Shown: in pieces, positions 2,893 to 41,175 of the stretch | Layout of the letters: every line of letters starts with the position of its first letter | How positions within the stretch are numbered: the first letter of the stretch is position 1 | Made by a program: the position numbers and the translations under genes | IMG/VR virus record: IMGVR_UViG_3300002168_000007 | Location: 1-41,175 of that record | Reading direction: 5' to 3' (one strand) | Source of the DNA: a virus | Length of the DNA stretch: 41,175 nucleotides | Notes under the pieces: generated by a model | The model's database searches: none | What the model saw: only the letters and a program-made list of their open reading frames with translations | What the model was told of the DNA's origin: nothing

Positions 2893-3132
2893 TCATCTTT
2901 TAATTATTTTCTCTACTTCTTGAATTACGTATCTGATTTCTTTACACTTATTTTCGCTATTAAGTTCCGCACATCTTTTCTCTGCCATTTCATAATCATC
3001 TGTAAACCCTTTATTCTCGCCATTTCCACACCAAATTTGCATGGGATAATCCTTAATACTGCAATCTAATCTAAGAACTTCTTTTGAATAACATATATTA
3101 AATTCATTATTTATCTTTCCTTTACTTTTCAA
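2893..3132 (-). CDS. Hypothetical Cys-containing protein (79 aa, TTG start as in ORF track)
   Basis: ORF track. No clear SD, so the start is uncertain. Confidence 0.45.
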   Translation of the reverse strand: MKSKGKINNEFNICYSKEVLRLDCSIKDYPMQIWCGNGENKGFTDDYEMAEKRCAELNSENKCKEIRYVIQEVEKIIKR

Positions 3133-3226
3133 TTACGTGGAGTTCATAAAATTTAACACTAAATTCTCCACTGCTTGGACTTCTTTTTAAATTAAATTCC
3201 ACATTTCCATACTTTTCCTTTATGCA

Positions 3227-3313
3227 TTACTTTTTCACTTCAATATCTTCCATTTCTTTTTCGTGAAAAAGTAAGAATCCTATACATTTTTCATCTCCAC
3301 ATTTACACTTCAT
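3227..3313 (-). CDS. Tiny Cys-rich ORF (28 aa, MKCKCGDEKCIGF...). The frame stays open for 34 more codons after its TAA.
   Basis: ATGA overlap with the upstream ORF 3310..3483. See the finding on the interrupted ORF. Confidence 0.35.
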   Translation of the reverse strand: MKCKCGDEKCIGFLLFHEKEMEDIEVKK

Positions 3314-3483
3314 TTCTCACACCCTCCAATTAATTCGCATTTAGATTCTAATTCTTTTTCAATTAAGGTTATTTTCTCTAAATGATTATCAAGGTTACAC
3401 TCTATTTCCCATTTATATTGCTCTAATAAATCTTTTAAGACATTGACTTCTAAATCTTTAATATATTCTTTGAAGTTTCTCAT
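3310..3483 (-). CDS. Hypothetical protein (57 aa, MRNFKEYIKDLEVNVL...), not in ORF track
   Basis: Hand translation. SD GAAGGAG is supplied by element copy 3. Confidence 0.5.
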   Translation of the reverse strand: MRNFKEYIKDLEVNVLKDLLEQYKWEIECNLDNHLEKITLIEKELESKCELIGGCEK

Positions 3484-3493
3484 TGCTACTTAT

Positions 3494-3521
3494 CTCCTTC
3501 ACATTTTATTTGTATTGCGAA
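3494..3521 (-). repeat. Stop-to-SD intercistronic element, copy 3
   Basis: Minus strand: TTCGCAAT-ACAAAT-AAAATG-TGAAGGAG. Starts immediately after the TAG of 3522..4076. Confidence 0.75.
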
Positions 3522-4083: not shown

Positions 4084-4111
4084 CTCCTTCATCTTTTAAT
4101 CATAATCCGAA
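4084..4111 (-). repeat. Stop-to-SD intercistronic element, copy 4
   Basis: Minus strand: TTCGGATT-ATGATTAAAAGA-TGAAGGAG. Starts immediately after the TAG of 4112..4648. Confidence 0.75.
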
Positions 4112-4648: not shown

Positions 4649-5079
4649 TTATTTTTCACCTTTCTATTATTACTTCTTATTTTCTTTAACTCATAGAAAT
4701 CTATAAAACCATACTTATCACCATGCTTTAGATTTCTTGCAACTATAGACAGCTTTAAATCTCTATATCTCCAGTGAAATAACTTAATCCTCATTTCTCC
4801 TTGTTGTGTAGTCATTCCCTTTACATCTACATATTCCACACTATCATCATTATGATATATAGTGAAATCAACTGTATATGTTATAGGTCTATACTTCTTA
4901 CCTTCCTTCTCAAAACCATCTACAAGAACAAACTTCTCTTGTAATTCAAAGTTTTTAATTTCTCCTTTTGCTCTTCTTATCTTTAGTGCTTCATAGTATT
5001 TCATTTCATCTTTAGAATCAAAAGTTATTCCATCACATTCAGCTTTTTTACTGTTGTATTTTGACATATTCTCACTCAT
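4645..5079 (-). CDS. DUF1064-type protein (putative PD-(D/E)xK-like nuclease or resolvase)
   Basis: KYNSKKAECDGITFDSKDEMKYYEAL...YTVDFTIY...VEYVDVKG is the typical DUF1064 pattern. ATGA overlap with the MazG-like gene. Confidence 0.6.
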   Translation of the reverse strand: MSENMSKYNSKKAECDGITFDSKDEMKYYEALKIRRAKGEIKNFELQEKFVLVDGFEKEGKKYRPITYTVDFTIYHNDDSVEYVDVKGMTTQQGEMRIKLFHWRYRDLKLSIVARNLKHGDKYGFIDFYELKKIRSNNRKVKNK

Positions 5080-5140
5080 TTCTTATATGATATTGATAGC
5101 CAAGTGAGAAAATTAGCTTGTAACCATATCCTCACTTAGG

Positions 5141-5168
5141 CTTATTCATCTTTTAATCATAATCCGAA
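5141..5168 (-). repeat. Stop-to-SD intercistronic element, copy 5 (SD part degenerated)
   Basis: Minus strand: TTCGGATT-ATGATTAAAAGA-TGAATAAG. Identical to copy 4 except in the SD. Starts immediately after the TGA at 5169-5171, not after the SSB amber codon. Confidence 0.75.
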
Positions 5169-5219
5169 TCAGAATGGAACCTCCTCCGAATCGTCAACTG
5201 GATTATTCCACCCATCATC
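5169..5219 (-). other. In-frame post-amber extension encoding the canonical SSB acidic C-terminal tail (DDGWNNPVDDSEEVPF, then TGA)
   Basis: Hand translation downstream of the TAG at 5220-5222: GAT GAT GGG TGG AAT AAT CCA GTT GAC GAT TCG GAG GAG GTT CCA TTC TGA. Confidence 0.7.
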
Positions 5220-5564
5220 CTAATTATTGTTGTTAGTTGTTGTATTATTCTTAGCCCACTCTACACCGTCGAACATATCAGCTACTACTTCTGTAACATA
5301 TCTTTTAGTACCGTCTTTAGCTTCATAATCTCTTATAGTTAACTTACCGTTAACCCACACTTTTTGTCCTTTTAAAACATTGTTAGCGAAGAACTCTGCT
5401 TGTTTACCCCATACCACAATATTTACAAAATAAGTCTTTTTGTTTTCTCTGTATCCGTCGTTAACAGCTATACTAGTTGTTGCAACTGGTGTACCTTTCC
5501 CTGCTGTCATTCTTAATTCTATTTCCTTACATACGTTCCCTGAAATTGTTATTCTATTTGCCAT
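5220..5564 (-). CDS. ssb: Single-stranded DNA-binding protein, OB-fold core (114 aa to the amber codon; 130 residues if the TAG is read through)
   Basis: Typical SSB OB-fold (VWGKQAEF...KGQKVWVNGKLTIRDYEAKDGTKRYVTEVVAD) and an Asn/Thr linker. Confidence 0.9.
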   Translation of the reverse strand: MANRITISGNVCKEIELRMTAGKGTPVATTSIAVNDGYRENKKTYFVNIVVWGKQAEFFANNVLKGQKVWVNGKLTIRDYEAKDGTKRYVTEVVADMFDGVEWAKNNTTTNNNN

Positions 5565-7288: not shown

Positions 7289-8044
7289 TCACTCCTTTAT
7301 GTCTCTTAATCTGTAGCTATATTGTTTTCCTTCAAAAGTAACTATATTATTTCCACACATTTCTAATATTCTTCCTGCCAGTGCTTCATCTAGTTCTATA
7401 AGCTGTTGTGGCAGCAATTCAGTACTTATTACTGTAGAAAGCATATTGTTATATCTATAATTAATAATGCTGTATATGTGCTTTATATCGCTTTCTGACA
7501 ATGTGCCAACTAACTTACCATTTTTTACTTTGTCTTTAAATAAATCATCAATTATTAATAATTTTGCATTGTAGTATTTTCCTATAAGCCTTAAGTAGTA
7601 TTCATTATCCATACTGTTAGCCTTTAATTCTCTTATAATCTCCAGGTAAGGCATATAAATAACTGCTATACCTTTTTCTAATAAAGCTGCCCCTATACCT
7701 ATAGATAAATGAGATTTCCCTGCTCCAGGATTACCTGCGAATAATATTGACTTTGTAGGTTCGTATGTTTTTATATAATTTACTGCCATTTCTTTTGCTT
7801 TTTTTCTAGTATCATTATTAACAATATATTGATTAATCTTTTTTACTTTTGAAGGGTCTAGTCCAAATCTTCTCCAACTCTCTATATTTTCTTGTTTTAT
7901 TCTACAAGCACATTTTTTATATGCACTCTTTTCTCCAATACCTGTAACAATCCAACCTGTATCACGGCATATTTCACAATTATGCTTTATGTTTTTCTTT
8001 TGTGCTTTGCTTCTTAATACTTTTAATTGATCTACTAGTTCCAT
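7289..8044 (-). CDS. DnaC/IstB-like AAA+ helicase loader (251 aa from the ATG at 8044; the ORF track extends to 8119)
   Basis: Walker A GNPGAGKSHL, Walker B LLIIDDL, N-terminal CEICRDTGW...CAC zinc motif. GGGGTGAGGA SD precedes the ATG at 8044, just after the upstream stop. Confidence 0.8.
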   Translation of the reverse strand: MELVDQLKVLRSKAQKKNIKHNCEICRDTGWIVTGIGEKSAYKKCACRIKQENIESWRRFGLDPSKVKKINQYIVNNDTRKKAKEMAVNYIKTYEPTKSILFAGNPGAGKSHLSIGIGAALLEKGIAVIYMPYLEIIRELKANSMDNEYYLRLIGKYYNAKLLIIDDLFKDKVKNGKLVGTLSESDIKHIYSIINYRYNNMLSTVISTELLPQQLIELDEALAGRILEMCGNNIVTFEGKQYSYRLRDIKE

Positions 8045-8054
8045 ATCCTCACCC

Positions 8055-8894
8055 CTAAAAATCAATATCTTCAAATTCTGCATTGTATTTAGCAATATTT
8101 TCTTCACTAAATTGTTCATTTATTTCTTGCTTTAGTTTTTTGTATTCTTCCTTTGAAAAATTATTTAACTCTTCTTTTTGACTTCTATTGCCATAAGAGT
8201 TGTAATTATTTTTTTTAGGAAATACAGATAACCAACAATTACATATACTTTCTTCTAACCTCTCTATCTTTTCTGTATCATTTGTTGCTAAGGTATCTAA
8301 CTTCTTCAATAAAGTTTTTAAGGCTCTATCTGTCATTGGTTTCTTTTGTGACTTTCTCATTTTTAAGAAGTCTTGTAGTGTTTCTACTAATTCAAAGTTA
8401 GAAGTATAAGTGTTAATTATTTCATCTAATGCAGATGCTTTTTTCTTTTTCTCTTTTTTATTACCTATACTATCCTTACCTATACTATCCTTACCTATAC
8501 TATCCTTACCTATGCCGTCCATTGGTTGTCCTTGGGACGTCCCACTATCTTTTTTTCTATCTGCTCTTTCCTTAGATTCTAATAATTCTACATCTGGATT
8601 AACTTGTAATAATATATTTTTATATATTGAATCTACTTTCCTATCTGCTCTTATTTTGTTGTGTTCTTGCCAATCAACTATAAAACTTACTAAATCTTCA
8701 TTAAGTATTGTTATATATCCTTTAGATACTAATACTCTTAAATCATCTTCTGTTGCTCCTGTCATTCTTAAAGTTGTAAATGCTTCTACAACACCATCAT
8801 CATCTGCTCTCATTCCTAGATCATAATATAGAAGGCGAGAAGAAGAAGGCATCTTTAAGAATTTAGCAGATTCTATTATTTTTAATGAAAACAT
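8055..8894 (-). CDS. Replication initiator / replisome organiser with a winged-helix-like N-terminus
   Basis: N-terminal AKFLKMPSSSRLLYYDLGMRADDDGVV... resembles RepA_N/replisome-organiser domains. Sits directly upstream of the DnaC-like loader and contains tandem iterons. Confidence 0.65.
   Translation of the reverse strand: MFSLKIIESAKFLKMPSSSRLLYYDLGMRADDDGVVEAFTTLRMTGATEDDLRVLVSKGYITILNEDLVSFIVDWQEHNKIRADRKVDSIYKNILLQVNPDVELLESKERADRKKDSGTSQGQPMDGIGKDSIGKDSIGKDSIGNKKEKKKKASALDEIINTYTSNFELVETLQDFLKMRKSQKKPMTDRALKTLLKKLDTLATNDTEKIERLEESICNCWLSVFPKKNNYNSYGNRSQKEELNNFSKEEYKKLKQEINEQFSEENIAKYNAEFEDIDF
8461..8520. repeat. Tandem 15-bp iterons (3 perfect, 1 degenerate) inside the initiator gene. 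Candidate ori.
   Basis: ttacctatactatcc x3 (8461, 8476, 8491), then ttacctatgccgtcc (8506). Encodes GKDSIGKDSIGKDSIG. Confidence 0.8.
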
Positions 8895-8915: not shown

Positions 8916-9041
8916 TCACTCCTTTAATAGTTTCTCAACTTCTAAAGCCTTGTCGTAAGGGATAAGGGTATACCCCATATTCCCTACAACAACTTTTATA
9001 AATATTCTTCCGTTTATTTTTAGCGGTATATGTTTAATCAT
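8916..9041 (-). CDS. Small ORF (41 aa, MIKHIPLKINGRIFIKVVVGN...), not in ORF track
   Basis: ATGA overlap with the ERF stop. Fills the gap to the initiator gene. Confidence 0.4.
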   Translation of the reverse strand: MIKHIPLKINGRIFIKVVVGNMGYTLIPYDKALEVEKLLKE

Positions 9042-9631
9042 TTATTACCACTCTCTTTTACTTGGCAATTCATACATAAAACCTTTTTGAACTTGTTATA
9101 TGAAAATTTTGCTATCTTTTCAGTTACTTCTTTACCGCAGTTTTTGCAGCTATAAGTTTTGTTGCCGGTATTATTATTTACTGCTTTATTTTGTGTTCTG
9201 TTAGAAGTATCTCTAGCATCAGGATCATCACCGTCTGTTGGTGCTTGAAAGAACTTCAATATAAAATATCTCTCACTGTAAGTTAAGGCACTACCAAAAC
9301 TTTTTGATATATCATCTTGTGCACCGTAGTATTTCCAATTAACCTTTATGACTTCTTCTGGATTTTCAGCATTAACCCATGTATAAATCATGTCACCATT
9401 TACAATAAAATCTGTTTTTTCTTCGTCTTTACTATTTTTGTAATTAAAAGTTTCAGTATGGTCTACACCCACACATTCTGGAATTAAAAGAACTCCTAAT
9501 TCATCCATCTTAGTCCTAATCTTTCTTATAGCTTGGCTACCACTTACATATTGGTATCTGTACCCTTTAGTATCCTTACAAAAATCTATAACATCTTTTC
9601 TTATTTCAATTAATTTTTGTTGTAAATTCAT
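9038..9631 (-). CDS. ERF-family single-strand annealing recombinase with a C-terminal zinc ribbon
   Basis: SKSFGSALTYSERYFILKFF matches the ERF core motif. C-terminal CKNCGKEV...CMNC. SD TAGGAGGA. Confidence 0.75.
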   Translation of the reverse strand: MNLQQKLIEIRKDVIDFCKDTKGYRYQYVSGSQAIRKIRTKMDELGVLLIPECVGVDHTETFNYKNSKDEEKTDFIVNGDMIYTWVNAENPEEVIKVNWKYYGAQDDISKSFGSALTYSERYFILKFFQAPTDGDDPDARDTSNRTQNKAVNNNTGNKTYSCKNCGKEVTEKIAKFSYNKFKKVLCMNCQVKESGNK

Positions 9632-11398: not shown

Positions 11399-11630
11399 TG
11401 TCTTGTAAACAATCTTTGCAAATTAATTTGCCCCTAAAATTAATTACAGCTTTAGCTTCTTTACAGAATATACAACATGGTTCATATTTCTTTAATATGA
11501 TTTTGTCGTCTTCAGTATAGATTTCTAATACTGTCTCCTTTTCTTTCATACCGTACATGTCTCTTAATTCCTTTGGTAAAACAATCCTTCCTAATTGATC
11601 TAATCTACGCGCTATTCCTATTGACTTCAT
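11382..11630 (-). CDS. AbrB/SpoVT-family DNA-binding protein with a C-terminal Cys4 zinc-ribbon-like tail
   Basis: N-terminal GIARRLDQLGRIVLPKELR is the swapped-hairpin AbrB motif. C-terminal CCIFC...CKDC. Confidence 0.8.
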   Translation of the reverse strand: MKSIGIARRLDQLGRIVLPKELRDMYGMKEKETVLEIYTEDDKIILKKYEPCCIFCKEAKAVINFRGKLICKDCLQDIKENA

Positions 11631-14477: not shown

Positions 14478-14837
14478 ATGAACTTAAAAGGTGAAAGAAT
14501 AAAGGAATTAAGAAAAGAAAGAGGTCTGTCGCAAGCTAAACTTGCAAAAGAATGTGGAATTAGTAGATCAGTAATCGCTATGGTTGAAAGTGGTAAACAA
14601 AATGGCGGTCGTGATTTTAATAAAGCTATTGCAAATTATTTTGGTGTTAGTATAGATTATTTAGAAGGTATGACAGATGATAGAAATAATAGTAAAGAAA
14701 GCTTAGTAAATGAATTTGTTCAATTTTTAATAGATAATGGTATTATTGAAGACGAAAACAATGTTGATGAAGAAACAGAACAAATAATTTTAAGTTTAAT
14801 AAGAAGAGAAGTGAAAAAGATTAAGGGGGATAAGTAA
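14478..14837 (+). CDS. CI-like XRE-family repressor (119 aa, no S24 peptidase domain)
   Basis: HTH LSQAKLAKECGISRSVIAMVESGKQ. Divergent from the Cro-like gene. TAATG junction with the integrase gene. Confidence 0.8.
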   Translation: MNLKGERIKELRKERGLSQAKLAKECGISRSVIAMVESGKQNGGRDFNKAIANYFGVSIDYLEGMTDDRNNSKESLVNEFVQFLIDNGIIEDENNVDEETEQIILSLIRREVKKIKGDK

Positions 14838-16321
14838 TGAGAATAGCAATATACACTAGAAAGAGTGTATACAAAGAATATAGTGAAAGTATAGATACAC
14901 AAATAGAGCTGTGTAAAAATTATTTTAGAAATGAGGGAAATGAATATGATGTATTTATCGACGAAGGTTTTTCTGGTGGTAACACTAAAAGACCTTCGTT
15001 TCTTAATATGATGGACTTAATAAGATTAGGGAAATTTGATGTAGTAGCAATATACAAAATAGATAGAATAAGCAGAAATATAGTAGATTTTTTTAAGATA
15101 TATGAGGAATTAGAAAAATACAATGTGAAGCTAGTATCAATAACAGAAAATTTTGATACTACTACACCGATTGGAAAAATGATGATGATTATGTTATCCG
15201 CATTTGCAGATATGGAACGTGAGAATATAAGGCAAAGGGTTAAAGATAATATGATAGCCTTAGCAAAGAAAGGATGTTTTACAGGCGGTTTTGTGCCTTT
15301 TGGGTGTGAAGTAGAAAAGAAGGAAGGTAAAAGTTATTTAAAAATTGTAGATACAGATATATTACAATTAATGTTTACTAAGTATCTGGAATTAGGAACT
15401 TTATATGCTACACAAAAATACCTTCTAGATAACAATATAAAGACCGTTACAGCAAGGAGTAGTTTAAGGGATATATTACGTAATCCTGTTTATTGTAAAA
15501 GCAGTGAGGAGGTTTCTAGGTACTTAGAAGATAAATATGAAGTAGTTGGTAAAGCTAATGGGAAAGGATATATAACATATGGAAAAACTAAAGGATATCC
15601 TATGCTAATTGTAGGTAAACATAAAGCTTGTATTGATGCAGATTTATTTTTAAAAGCTAATATGTTGATGGACAAGAATAAAGAAGATACAAGCAAAAGA
15701 AAAAGCAAGGTTTATTGGCTTTCTAATATACTTTATTGCCCTTATTGTGGCGGTAAATATACTATAGTTAACAGCGATAGAAACTCTTATTATGTATGTA
15801 CTCATAGAATAAATAGAAAATCTGGAGGTATGGGTAGAGATTTCACAAAAGAGAAATGTATTAACAATAAATATGTTAATGCTATAGAAATAGAAAAGAA
15901 GGTATCTAAGCTTATATATGCTTTAGAAGATAAAAAATATTTTGAATCTGTATACAGTAAAAGTGTTGGAGATGGTAATAAAAAAGAGATTGATATCCTG
16001 GAAGGTAAGATAAATAAGAATAATACCAGCATAGATAACCTGGTTGATAAGTTAACTGTTGCTAGTGACCAAGTTTCTAAAATACTTATGGATAAGATAG
16101 AAAAGTTAAATACAGAAAATAATGAATTAAAGATAAGTTTAGATAAGTTAAAAATAAAAGAAATGCAGAAAGCAGCAGATAATAACACTAAAGAAATAAA
16201 AGAGTGCATACACAAATTTAAAGATATAAAAGATAATGAACAGAAAAGAAAGTTAGCAAGCATAATATTTAAAAAGCTAATATATGATCCTGTTGCTGAT
16301 AAAATAAAGGTTGTCTTCTAG
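14837..16321 (+). CDS. int: Large serine recombinase (phage integrase)
   Basis: N-terminal resolvase domain (MRIAIYTRKS...), recombinase domain, zinc ribbon CPYCGGKY...YYVCTHR, C-terminal coiled coil. Confidence 0.9.
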   Translation: MRIAIYTRKSVYKEYSESIDTQIELCKNYFRNEGNEYDVFIDEGFSGGNTKRPSFLNMMDLIRLGKFDVVAIYKIDRISRNIVDFFKIYEELEKYNVKLVSITENFDTTTPIGKMMMIMLSAFADMERENIRQRVKDNMIALAKKGCFTGGFVPFGCEVEKKEGKSYLKIVDTDILQLMFTKYLELGTLYATQKYLLDNNIKTVTARSSLRDILRNPVYCKSSEEVSRYLEDKYEVVGKANGKGYITYGKTKGYPMLIVGKHKACIDADLFLKANMLMDKNKEDTSKRKSKVYWLSNILYCPYCGGKYTIVNSDRNSYYVCTHRINRKSGGMGRDFTKEKCINNKYVNAIEIEKKVSKLIYALEDKKYFESVYSKSVGDGNKKEIDILEGKINKNNTSIDNLVDKLTVASDQVSKILMDKIEKLNTENNELKISLDKLKIKEMQKAADNNTKEIKECIHKFKDIKDNEQKRKLASIIFKKLIYDPVADKIKVVF

Positions 16322-16646: not shown

Positions 16647-16683
16647 AACAAAGAAAAGAGGTACAAAATTAATTTGCACCTCT
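16647..16683 (-). terminator. Intrinsic terminator of the metalloprotease moron
   Basis: Minus strand: AGAGGTGCAAA-ttaat-TTTGTACCTCT (one G-U pair), then TTTCTTTGTT. Overlaps the stop codon. Confidence 0.65.
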
Positions 16684-17250
16684 TTCTAAACTTAAAAAAT
16701 AATTATATATGTAAAGGTAATTACACTCAACCCAATCAGGAAACATTTTATATATAGCATACATTTGAGCGAAGCACTCTCTTTTATTAGCTGTAAAATA
16801 ACTTGTATCATATGCAAAACGTGAGAAGAAATCAGCTCTATTATTCCATATAGTATCAAATGAGTTTGTTTCTGATATAAAGCTTTTTGAACTATCTAGC
16901 ATATGCCCTAATTCATGATAAAAGTTATTATTCATTGTTTCTTCATCTGGGAAGTATTGAAGGTAAATCATCTTCTTATCATAATCAATTAACCCAGTAG
17001 CAAAATCTTTATATTTACTATCTATTCGATTAGGTGTTTGCCCTTCATCAAGAATTACTATGTGATAGTTGTTATTCTTCATATAATCTTTTAAATTACC
17101 ATTTATATTATTGTAGCAATCATTCATTGTGTTTTGAACTGTTTTATCATACTCACTTAATTTATCTTTAGCAGTAACAACTGTACCGCTATGTAATAAT
17201 GTTGCAGTTAAACTAATTGCAGTAAATAAAGTTATTATTATTCTCTTCAT
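16669..17250 (-). CDS. Secreted HExxH zinc metalloprotease, ATLF/M34-like (Pro-Pro-endopeptidase-like architecture)
   Basis: Signal peptide MKRIIITLFTAISLTATLLHSGTVVTA. HELGH motif. RECFAQMYAIY lies about 45 aa downstream, comparable to EEFFAESFAYYY of PPEP-1-type enzymes. Confidence 0.65.
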   Translation of the reverse strand: MKRIIITLFTAISLTATLLHSGTVVTAKDKLSEYDKTVQNTMNDCYNNINGNLKDYMKNNNYHIVILDEGQTPNRIDSKYKDFATGLIDYDKKMIYLQYFPDEETMNNNFYHELGHMLDSSKSFISETNSFDTIWNNRADFFSRFAYDTSYFTANKRECFAQMYAIYKMFPDWVECNYLYIYNYFLSLERGAN

Positions 17251-18402: not shown

Positions 18403-18684
18403 CTACTCTTCTTTACCTAATTGTTTAATAGTTTGATTTACTCCTACACTAACTCCCCAACACAAGATGCCTTGCAAGAATCCATTTACTATAACCTCTA
18501 GATTTACTTTATACTTAGCATTAATAATACTTAGTAGAATTGCAAATGTTATACCAAATAGCATTAACAATATTGTTATGTATTTATCTTTAATCATTTC
18601 GATTTTCTTAAAAAATACACCTACTACATAGATTGCAACTATTACTATTAATAAACTGCTTGGTATAAAACTCATAATGTCCAT
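18403..18684 (-). CDS. Holin (three predicted TM segments, 93 aa)
   Basis: Three hydrophobic segments and a charged C-terminus. Immediately upstream of the endolysin. Confidence 0.8.
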   Translation of the reverse strand: MDIMSFIPSSLLIVIVAIYVVGVFFKKIEMIKDKYITILLMLFGITFAILLSIINAKYKVNLEVIVNGFLQGILCWGVSVGVNQTIKQLGKEE

Positions 18685-18696
18685 AAAACATTCCTC

Positions 18697-18969
18697 CTAT
18701 TTAGATAAATTTAAAATAGCAAGTATATAACCTGCTATTCCTGCTATTATACCACCTAAGAATTTCATTATTAATTCATTCTTATTTTTTCTTTGTGTTT
18801 TGTCGAACTCGTCCCATCTATCATTCACTCTATTTACTGTTTTAATTAAGTCTTTTTGGTCAATTCTCATTTCTGTAACTGTTTTTTTTATGTCTTTCAC
18901 ATCATTTTCTAATGCTGTTAATCGTCTTTCTGTGTTTGTGTTTATAATTTCTTGTGCTTCACTATTCAT
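18697..18969 (-). CDS. XhlA-like lysis-associated membrane protein
   Basis: N-terminal coiled coil (RLTALENDVKDIKK...) and a C-terminal TM segment. Positioned upstream of the holin, as in PBSX xhlA-xhlB-xlyA. Confidence 0.6.
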   Translation of the reverse strand: MNSEAQEIINTNTERRLTALENDVKDIKKTVTEMRIDQKDLIKTVNRVNDRWDEFDKTQRKNKNELIMKFLGGIIAGIAGYILAILNLSK

Positions 18970-19077
18970 GTTACATGCCTATTTCCCTTTCTTTTTAGTT
19001 TTAAAGATATTTACTAGTTTTATCATTCCAGGATAAAATATTTTTTTAATCCAATCCCACATACTCACACCACCTTT

Positions 19078-19263
19078 CTATTTTTTGGTTGAAATCATGA
19101 GTGCAAAATACCCAATTATCCATATAGCTATAAAGATTGATTGAGTAATAAAAAATGTTCTTAATGTTTTACAATATTCTCTTGTAATTTTCTCTAGTCT
19201 CTCAAAATATTGGTCTTGTATATTGTCCATAAGTGCTTCTTGTTCTTCTGTTTTATTACTCAT
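19078..19263 (-). CDS. Small C-terminally anchored membrane protein (61 aa from the ATG at 19263; the ORF track extends to 19314)
   Basis: AAAGGAGA SD lies 4 nt upstream of the internal ATG. The upstream part of the tracked ORF is the terminator hairpin. Confidence 0.55.
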   Translation of the reverse strand: MSNKTEEQEALMDNIQDQYFERLEKITREYCKTLRTFFITQSIFIAIWIIGYFALMISTKK

Positions 19264-19289
19264 AATTTCTCCTTTCTGCTTTTGTAATA

Positions 19290-19319
19290 TAAAAAGAGAC
19301 TGGATATTGTCCAATCTCT
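19290..19319 (-). terminator. Terminator-like hairpin between the tail genes and the lysis cassette
   Basis: Minus strand: AGAGAtTGGA-caata-TCCAgTCTCT (the T-G wobble forms only on the minus strand), then TTTTATATT. Confidence 0.5.
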
Positions 19320-41077: not shown

Positions 41078-41175
41078 ATTAATCTATCACTTATATAAAC
41101 TTACTATGTTCTGTTTTTACTTCTTTTGAATATACAAAAATTCCATCAACTTCTTTAAGTATCTTATCTATATCT
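41078..41175 (+). repeat. Terminal overlap, copy B (identical to 1..98)
   Basis: Base-by-base identity with the window start. Contains the 3' part of gene 14..205. Confidence 0.95.

Follow-up and report, generated by a model that had tools for sequence, protein, structure and literature searches.

Does an SSB gene end where its reading frame first stops, when the codons of its conserved acidic tail lie in frame directly behind that stop? This question is raised by a locus of the IMG/VR virus record IMGVR_UViG_3300002168_000007, of which we analysed positions 1 to 41,175; this whole stretch of DNA, 41,175 nt in length, is called the window in the following. In its SSB gene an amber codon separates the part encoding the OB fold and the linker from 16 further codons, which are followed by a TGA (Table 1). 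The original prediction, made from the letters of the window, had left a choice between programmed or leaky UAG read-through, dependence on a host amber suppressor, and a very recent nonsense mutation or a sequencing error. Our analysis indicates that the TAG is probably a genuine, recent and lineage-specific nonsense mutation, which gives a tolerated, tail-less SSB similar to SsbB.

Table 1. Features of the SSB locus and of the surrounding phage genome, in window coordinates
Feature	Coordinates	Strand	Remarks
SSB ORF	5564..5220	minus	114 aa, ATG at 5564; OB fold and Asn/Thr-rich linker; ends at TAG in the standard code
Amber codon TAG	5222-5220	minus	Replaces the Tyr115 codon TAT, which is nearly invariant in the family
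16 in-frame tail codons, DDGWNNPVDDSEEVPF	5172..5219	minus	Acidic C-terminal protein-interaction tip ...EEVPF, conserved in relatives
TGA	5171-5169	minus	Ancestral stop of the full-length 131-aa SSB; the related loci L012-L014 and L003 end in the same ...CCN TTC TGA
Intercistronic element copy (TTCGGATTATGATTAAAAGATGAA...)	5141..5168	minus	Directly behind the TGA at 5171-5169
Four related element copies	5141-5168, 4084-4111, 3494-3521, 2473-2500	minus	Each starts at the base after a stop codon
Intergenic hairpin	5098..5142	minus	Strong predicted fold, from the element to the DUF1064 gene (ATG at 5079)
DUF1064, then MazG			Downstream of SSB
DnaC-like loader	7289-8119		
ERF annealing protein	9038-9631		
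Large serine recombinase (integrase)	14837-16321	+	
CI-like repressor, ORF6N antirepressor, Gp157, DUF3310 protein			Further genes
Small and large terminase, SPP1-type portal, tail genes, Amidase_3 endolysin			Packaging, tail and lysis genes

By its domain, the window protein belongs to the bacterial-type SSBs. The SSB OB fold (Pfam: PF00436) was detected at residues 3-97 with 89.4 bits, the cut-off being 26. SSB chains of the PDB match the 114-aa protein with E-values from 1.5e-17 to 4.5e-09, the best of them being 7d8j (organism not listed), and the solved chains among the matches include the B. subtilis proteins SsbA (PDB: 6bhw) and SsbB (PDB: 3vdy, E=9.6e-12). All 33 columns that are invariant in an alignment of 65 sequences are kept in the window SSB, for example W52, G53, K54, Y80 and E92. 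The 114-aa product fits the OB-fold-only architecture, of about 113 aa, that is found in the tail-less SsbB type.

The codons behind the TAG read GAT GAT GGG TGG AAT AAT CCA GTT GAC GAT TCG GAG GAG GTT CCA TTC. They encode in frame the acidic tip ...DDSEEVPF, which only read-through of the stop would add to the product. Coordinates and peptide of this layout, with a frame that stops at TAG and then stays open for 16 codons up to the TGA, agree exactly with the original prediction. The peptide had also been recognised there as the SSB interaction tip, and this holds: it is homologous to the tail of the relatives and conserved in the alignment. Two other routes to a tail were considered and rejected. 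Synthesis of the tail as a separate peptide would need a start codon, and 5219-5172 contains no ATG, GTG or TTG in frame; a bypass by frameshift or slippage would need a homopolymer or slippery sequence before the TAG, and none is present.

To see what stands at the stop position in related proteins, the read-through protein was used as the search query. This gave about 60 close metagenomic SSBs with 75-89% identity, which stem from metagenomes of manure, bovine and other gut samples, wastewater and bioreactors. Ten clusters at 90% identity comprise 112 members in all, of which about 70 listed members were checked; close relatives and cluster members together make up about 170 related SSBs that were inspected. 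Every complete relative is uninterrupted and tailed and has a length of 128-132 aa, apart from a few listed with 142-145 aa, for which the alignment suggests additional N-terminal residues. The relatives align across 100% of the read-through protein and the tail columns are conserved; the 16 codons are therefore not a stretch that is open by chance. The amber position is occupied by Tyr in at least 90% of 64 aligned relatives. Across 65 aligned sequences D116, P130 and F131 are invariant, while Y115, D117, G118 and D121 are nearly so. A stop at codon 115 is absent from all of the about 170 family members inspected. The roughly 70 cluster members listed give the same picture, save for three short fragments and one protein, P0133. 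The latter, encoded on a 928-nt ENA contig, ends in ...NNKSYDEVGMIQ and its tail appears to be frameshifted, so it looks as if SSB-tail lesions arise sporadically elsewhere in the family.

The same comparison was made at the DNA level for about 25 relative loci (L003-L020, L024 and L026), which represent six distinct proteins. Codon 115 is TAT in every one of them, and thus the TAG of the window arose as a T>G change at the third base of the codon on the minus strand, which corresponds to A>C at position 5220 on the plus strand. The nearest 3' end is that of L003. Over the 51 nt from the Tyr or stop codon to the TGA, only TAT>TAG and GAT>AAT (D121N) distinguish the two loci, and this difference of two bases indicates that the lesion is recent. 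Fifteen of the 16 tail residues are identical to those of the nearest relatives. In the closest full-length relative, L012, there are two synonymous differences and one non-synonymous difference downstream of the stop. Comparing the codon in orthologous SSBs had been proposed as a check along with the original prediction; the orthologues have a sense codon here (Tyr, TAT in the DNA) and the tail frame is present. Of the explanations proposed at the outset, the very recent nonsense mutation is the one that agrees with relatives carrying TAT and with a closest tail only two bases away. Additional searches of IMG/VR and JGI metagenomes for relatives with an amber codon gave no hits and were uninformative, since IMG/VR returned a single family member in the control and the JGI collection missed the window's own sequence.

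L003 (IMG/VR UViG_3300049647_000259, 3001-3405) is also of interest in its own right. Its OB fold belongs to another lineage, with 53% amino acid identity to that of the window, and its linker, tail and downstream DNA are nearly those of the window, the similar stretch starting at about residue 79 with 86% nucleotide identity. This pattern suggests a mosaic junction within the gene. The tail is kept in every relative, even across this junction, at which the OB fold has been swapped.

The DNA behind the gene gives a second indication of where the gene used to end. An intercistronic element with a consensus of about TTCRSAWTATGATTAAAAKGTGAAGGAG is present in four related copies, three of which end in the GGAG ribosome-binding site of the gene that follows. 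The sequence TTCGGATTATGATTAAAAGATGAA has two exact occurrences, where chance alone would give 0. In the case of SSB, the element starts behind the TGA and not behind the TAG. In the related loci L012, L015, L024 and L026 it directly follows the stop of the tail, in L003 it begins two bases later, and it is kept in relatives although the next gene differs. The position of the element behind the TGA, here and in the relatives, supports 5169 as the ancestral gene end. This argument had been put forward from the window's letters and is borne out by four stop-adjacent copies and by the agreement of the relatives. The element could be a linker for recombination at module boundaries or a signal for translational coupling. 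It also holds a possible mini-ORF of four codons, ATG ATT AAA AGA TGA.

Several RNA folds are predicted in this region. The tail-coding RNA (5172-5230, minus strand) is predicted to form a long hairpin with the start of the element, with the TAG at its base. The sequence of the intergenic hairpin that follows the element is conserved in L003 and in the related locus L004, with no covariation, and the hairpin lacks a T-run of the terminator type. For the 155-nt stretch that comprises the tail hairpin and the downstream intergenic hairpin, the predicted fold has a z-score of -3.1. No Rfam family matches in the window.

The amber codon is present in independently assembled data. The exact 114-aa product was found on six contigs, from JGI/IMG, ENA and Logan. 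In two biogas-fermenter runs with different sample and study codes, here called X1 and X2 and of which one is SRR3184649, the SSB region is 100% identical to the window at word depths of 5.9 and 39.5, respectively, and neither run contains an alternative contig over the TAG site. Run X2 equals the window exactly across 20 kb at a word depth of about 40. Run X1 likewise carries the TAG and has a G>T at 11575 as its sole SNP relative to the window over 20 kb, so that the amber allele is found on two minimally different genotypes. An ENA contig of 41,203 nt also has the TAG; in the 6.3 kb compared, it departs from the window by just one unit of a 15-nt tandem repeat near 8499. A Logan contig from SRR3184649 shows no difference from the window in 1.8 kb. 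The TAG was thus assembled by different assemblers, namely Logan, a MEGAHIT-style k141 assembly (ENA) and JGI. A random sequencing or assembly error behind the TAG is very unlikely. As the comparison was made with assembler contigs, a minority TAT allele may be present in the population, and the samples may stem from one reactor system. The sequencing error named among the original explanations can be set aside on these grounds: the TAG stands in two runs and samples, in six contigs, and in an ENA assembly that has a 15-bp indel elsewhere.

We also asked how TAG is used in the rest of the genome. The stop codons of the 58 ORFs are TAA in 28 cases, TAG in 20 and TGA in 10, in a genome with 29.5% GC, and TAG is the terminator of 19 ORFs besides SSB. 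Close behind the TAG of the 20 TAG-ended ORFs there is no excess of back-up stops. Read-through at other genes would lead to fusions of terminase and portal (479 codons), of Gp157 and ERF (200 codons) and of two small membrane proteins (97 codons). TAG-ended genes stop where their homologues stop, for example the portal with 474 aa in both and a 304-aa protein with 304 aa in both. ARAGORN detected no tRNA genes in the window, hence there is no phage-encoded suppressor with a CUA anticodon. No other gene in the window is split by an internal TAG. A chain of four segments at 18403-19314, in the same frame and separated by TAG, was considered as a candidate and rejected, as every segment has an ATG of its own and encodes a separate small membrane protein. 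TAG stops often lie within TAGGAGG and so overlap the ribosome-binding site of the next gene.

Several other explanations have to be weighed against a recent nonsense mutation. That the true base is a T, leaving a TAT codon and an intact SSB gene, is extremely improbable in our judgement. In its favour, the evidence for the base consists of assembler contigs and not of raw reads, and the datasets may share a single origin; it is opposed by the same base at both word depths in two runs and samples, from several assemblers and on all six contigs. We give next to no credence to an alternative genetic code in which TAG is a sense codon of the phage. Such a code could be read from the in-frame TAG inside a conserved gene and from a share of TAG among the stops (20 of 58) that is fairly high for 29.5% GC, but TAG stands at homologous gene ends, a single gene has it internally, a suppressor tRNA is missing, and the TAG-separated chain resolves into membrane proteins with their own start codons. 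Recoding was rejected for these reasons. As far as its sequence features tell, the phage with its SSB is outside every class of recoding: relatives do not share the stop, no suppressor tRNA is encoded, and internal TAG codons are not spread over several genes. Functional suppression under the standard code seems unlikely. Here an amber-suppressor tRNA or Pyl system of the host, or the local sequence context, would yield tailed and tail-less SSB side by side and the tail would still be under selection. The tail frame is indeed fully open, with all but one of its residues as in the nearest relatives, the genotype is found in abundance, no other part of the genome is damaged, the predicted hairpin extends from the TAG to the element within the stretch of low z-score, and a suppressor could be present in the host. 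The recency of the mutation accounts equally well for the intact tail, however, and the stop site is not conserved, being absent in the about 170 relatives. The phage has no tRNA genes, and the 19 other TAG-ended ORFs, some of which read-through would fuse to another gene, show no excess of nearby back-up stops. Behind the stop there is a single substitution, the non-synonymous D121N, and it affects a column with at least 90% conservation. We know of no established bacterial read-through motif with which the TAG hairpin could be compared, and no structure of this kind is, to our knowledge, described as stimulating read-through in bacteria. The notion of a programmed or regulatory read-through device, which the original prediction had entertained, does not stand up to the absence of the stop from the relatives, the lack of a suppressor tRNA and the ordinary use of TAG at the end of 19 other ORFs.

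A further possibility is that the loss of the tail was itself selected, for example as an escape from a host defence system or regulator by which the tail of the phage SSB is recognised, or to give an SsbB-like SSB which does not titrate host partners. We consider this improbable. The allele is present at high depth and in two samples, the SSB of this lineage has unusually many changes in conserved columns, and natural tail-less SSBs exist (PMC3384303). Phage SSBs trigger defences such as Retron-Eco8, with escape mutations located in SSB; in the case of Retron-Eco8 with the T7 SSB, however, it is the OB fold that is sensed, and deletion of the tail has no effect on activation (bioRxiv 10.1101/2025.11.11.687766). 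Moreover, the truncation is restricted to a single lineage and does not recur in relatives, no defence system is known for the host, and the data are explained as well by the drift of a neutral or mildly harmful allele in a near-clonal bloom. It is likewise a slim prospect that the amber allele is kept as something useful, either with a leaky UAG that would keep the proportion of tailed subunits in the tetramer low, or with a complete tail loss that would evade a host factor recognising this tail while the host SSB does the recruiting.

The explanation that we prefer is thus that a temperate siphovirus, apparently active and with no other damage to its genome, underwent a change from TAT (Tyr115) to TAG in its SSB gene. 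The main product would be an SSB of 114 aa in which the OB fold is intact and followed by a short linker, and from which the last 17 residues (Y-DDGWNNPVDDSEEVPF) are missing. The lost segment is the conserved YDDGWNDPVDD-x-E-x-PF, the partner-recruitment tail of the family. Since all invariant OB-fold residues are kept, binding of ssDNA is expected, and by analogy to SsbB the truncated protein would still coat ssDNA. It would probably no longer recruit the phage ERF protein or the replication and repair proteins of the host, a loss which the phage would tolerate if the tailed SSB of the host supplies the recruitment. Background read-through of UAG in bacteria is normally well below 1%, a small fraction of a percent. 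Full-length SSB would be made only through such near-cognate read-through, unless the host carries a suppressor. The tail codons would still be intact because there has been too little time for decay.

The window SSB deviates from the consensus in four columns that are at least 92% conserved, namely D14E, G39R, Y115* and D121N, whereas the 60 close relatives have at most two deviations in columns conserved to this degree, with a median of 0. As a weak indication from one sequence and few sites, this would fit relaxed or altered constraint on this SSB copy, especially on the untranslated tail. The strict conservation of the tail means that its loss should be costly; yet the genotype occurs at a word depth of about 40 and in two samples.

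The acidic tip of SSBs is described in the literature as the docking site for partner proteins. In phage HK620, an SSB lacking six residues of the tail showed an approximately 10-fold lower stimulation of the annealing protein, while ssDNA binding was not abolished, and on DNA the tail-deleted SSB became a barrier to the annealing protein (PMC5928155). SsbB of B. subtilis is a functional tail-less SSB of 113 aa with a role in competence, which protects ssDNA and does not bind RecO (PMC3384303).

The locus is most readily compared with the homotetrameric SSBs (Pfam: PF00436; SsbA, PDB: 6bhw) that are found in Firmicutes and in the temperate phages infecting them: the window shares with them the OB fold, the short low-complexity linker and an encoded acidic tip that ends in a hydrophobic residue, Pro and Phe. 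As in Firmicute phages, the gene lies in a replication and recombination module, next to ERF and the DnaC-like loader. In contrast to Firmicute SSBs, the tip is placed behind a TAG and is outside the product of the standard code. The predicted 114-aa product resembles B. subtilis SsbB (PDB: 3vdy) in consisting of an OB fold and few additional residues with no acidic tail. SsbB, however, is a stable paralogue that has no tail-coding sequence, whereas the window retains the tail codons, has only tailed relatives and represents a fresh lesion. The tail deletions of HK620 SSB (six residues removed) and of T7 gp2.5 are alike in that the tail is lost, the ssDNA-binding domain is left and a loss of recruitment is expected. 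These amber or tail mutants come from the laboratory, whereas the window mutation is natural and stems from an environmental phage population. The A1 read-through protein of Q-beta and the phages that recode TAG as Gln share with the window a functional-looking extension behind an in-frame stop. They differ from it in that the stop of the window is not conserved, no suppressor tRNA is present, TAG is an ordinary terminator and one gene is hit.

The event is an ordinary one, a natural amber mutation in a phage SSB, and it opens no new mechanism. An annotation should describe the locus as an SSB gene that is interrupted by a premature amber codon and whose ancestral end is 5169; a short SSB followed by an intergenic gap of 140 nt would be a wrong description, and so would a recoding site. 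The phage also offers a natural experiment, as it is abundant and apparently active without an SSB tail that is otherwise strictly conserved. This suggests, as a modest hint, that the SSB tail is helpful and not indispensable in this phage group. If this is true, phage-borne SSBs of this type would be partly redundant with the host SSB.

The window represents a closed circle of 41,077 bp with a terminal direct overlap of 98 nt (1-98 and 41078-41175), and the contig of run X2 joins back on itself, which confirms the circle. The phage is a temperate siphovirus with 29.5% GC and, apart from SSB, intact. Its genes for integrase, repressor, replication, packaging, tail and lysis are full length, with sizes as in relatives (terminase with 570 aa compared with 574 aa in a relative). 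The phage with the amber mutation is apparently viable and active, and the closed circle at a word depth of about 40 argues that it would be competent for replication.

No nucleotide match to the window was found among GenBank phages, a scan of GTDB genomes with the SSB found nothing, and none of the RNA runs searched contains the phage. A scan with the terminase gave only an uncultured Clostridium MAG with 51% identity and Niallia with 33%. There are weak hints that the host may be a Clostridium.

Two other features of the genome were observed. The 15-nt tandem repeat (TTACCTATACTATCC and variants) is located at 8461-8520 in an ORF of the replication module (8055-8894, minus strand). The one-unit difference in the ENA contig and a break of the Logan contig at this site indicate that the copy number of this 5-aa repeat is polymorphic. 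Between the integrase and the lysis genes there is an ORF of 193 aa (16669-17250, minus strand) with a weak match to an anthrax lethal factor-like domain (Pfam: PF07737) of 25.5 bits, which is below the cut-off of 27.4; it may be a metalloprotease-like gene of the moron type.
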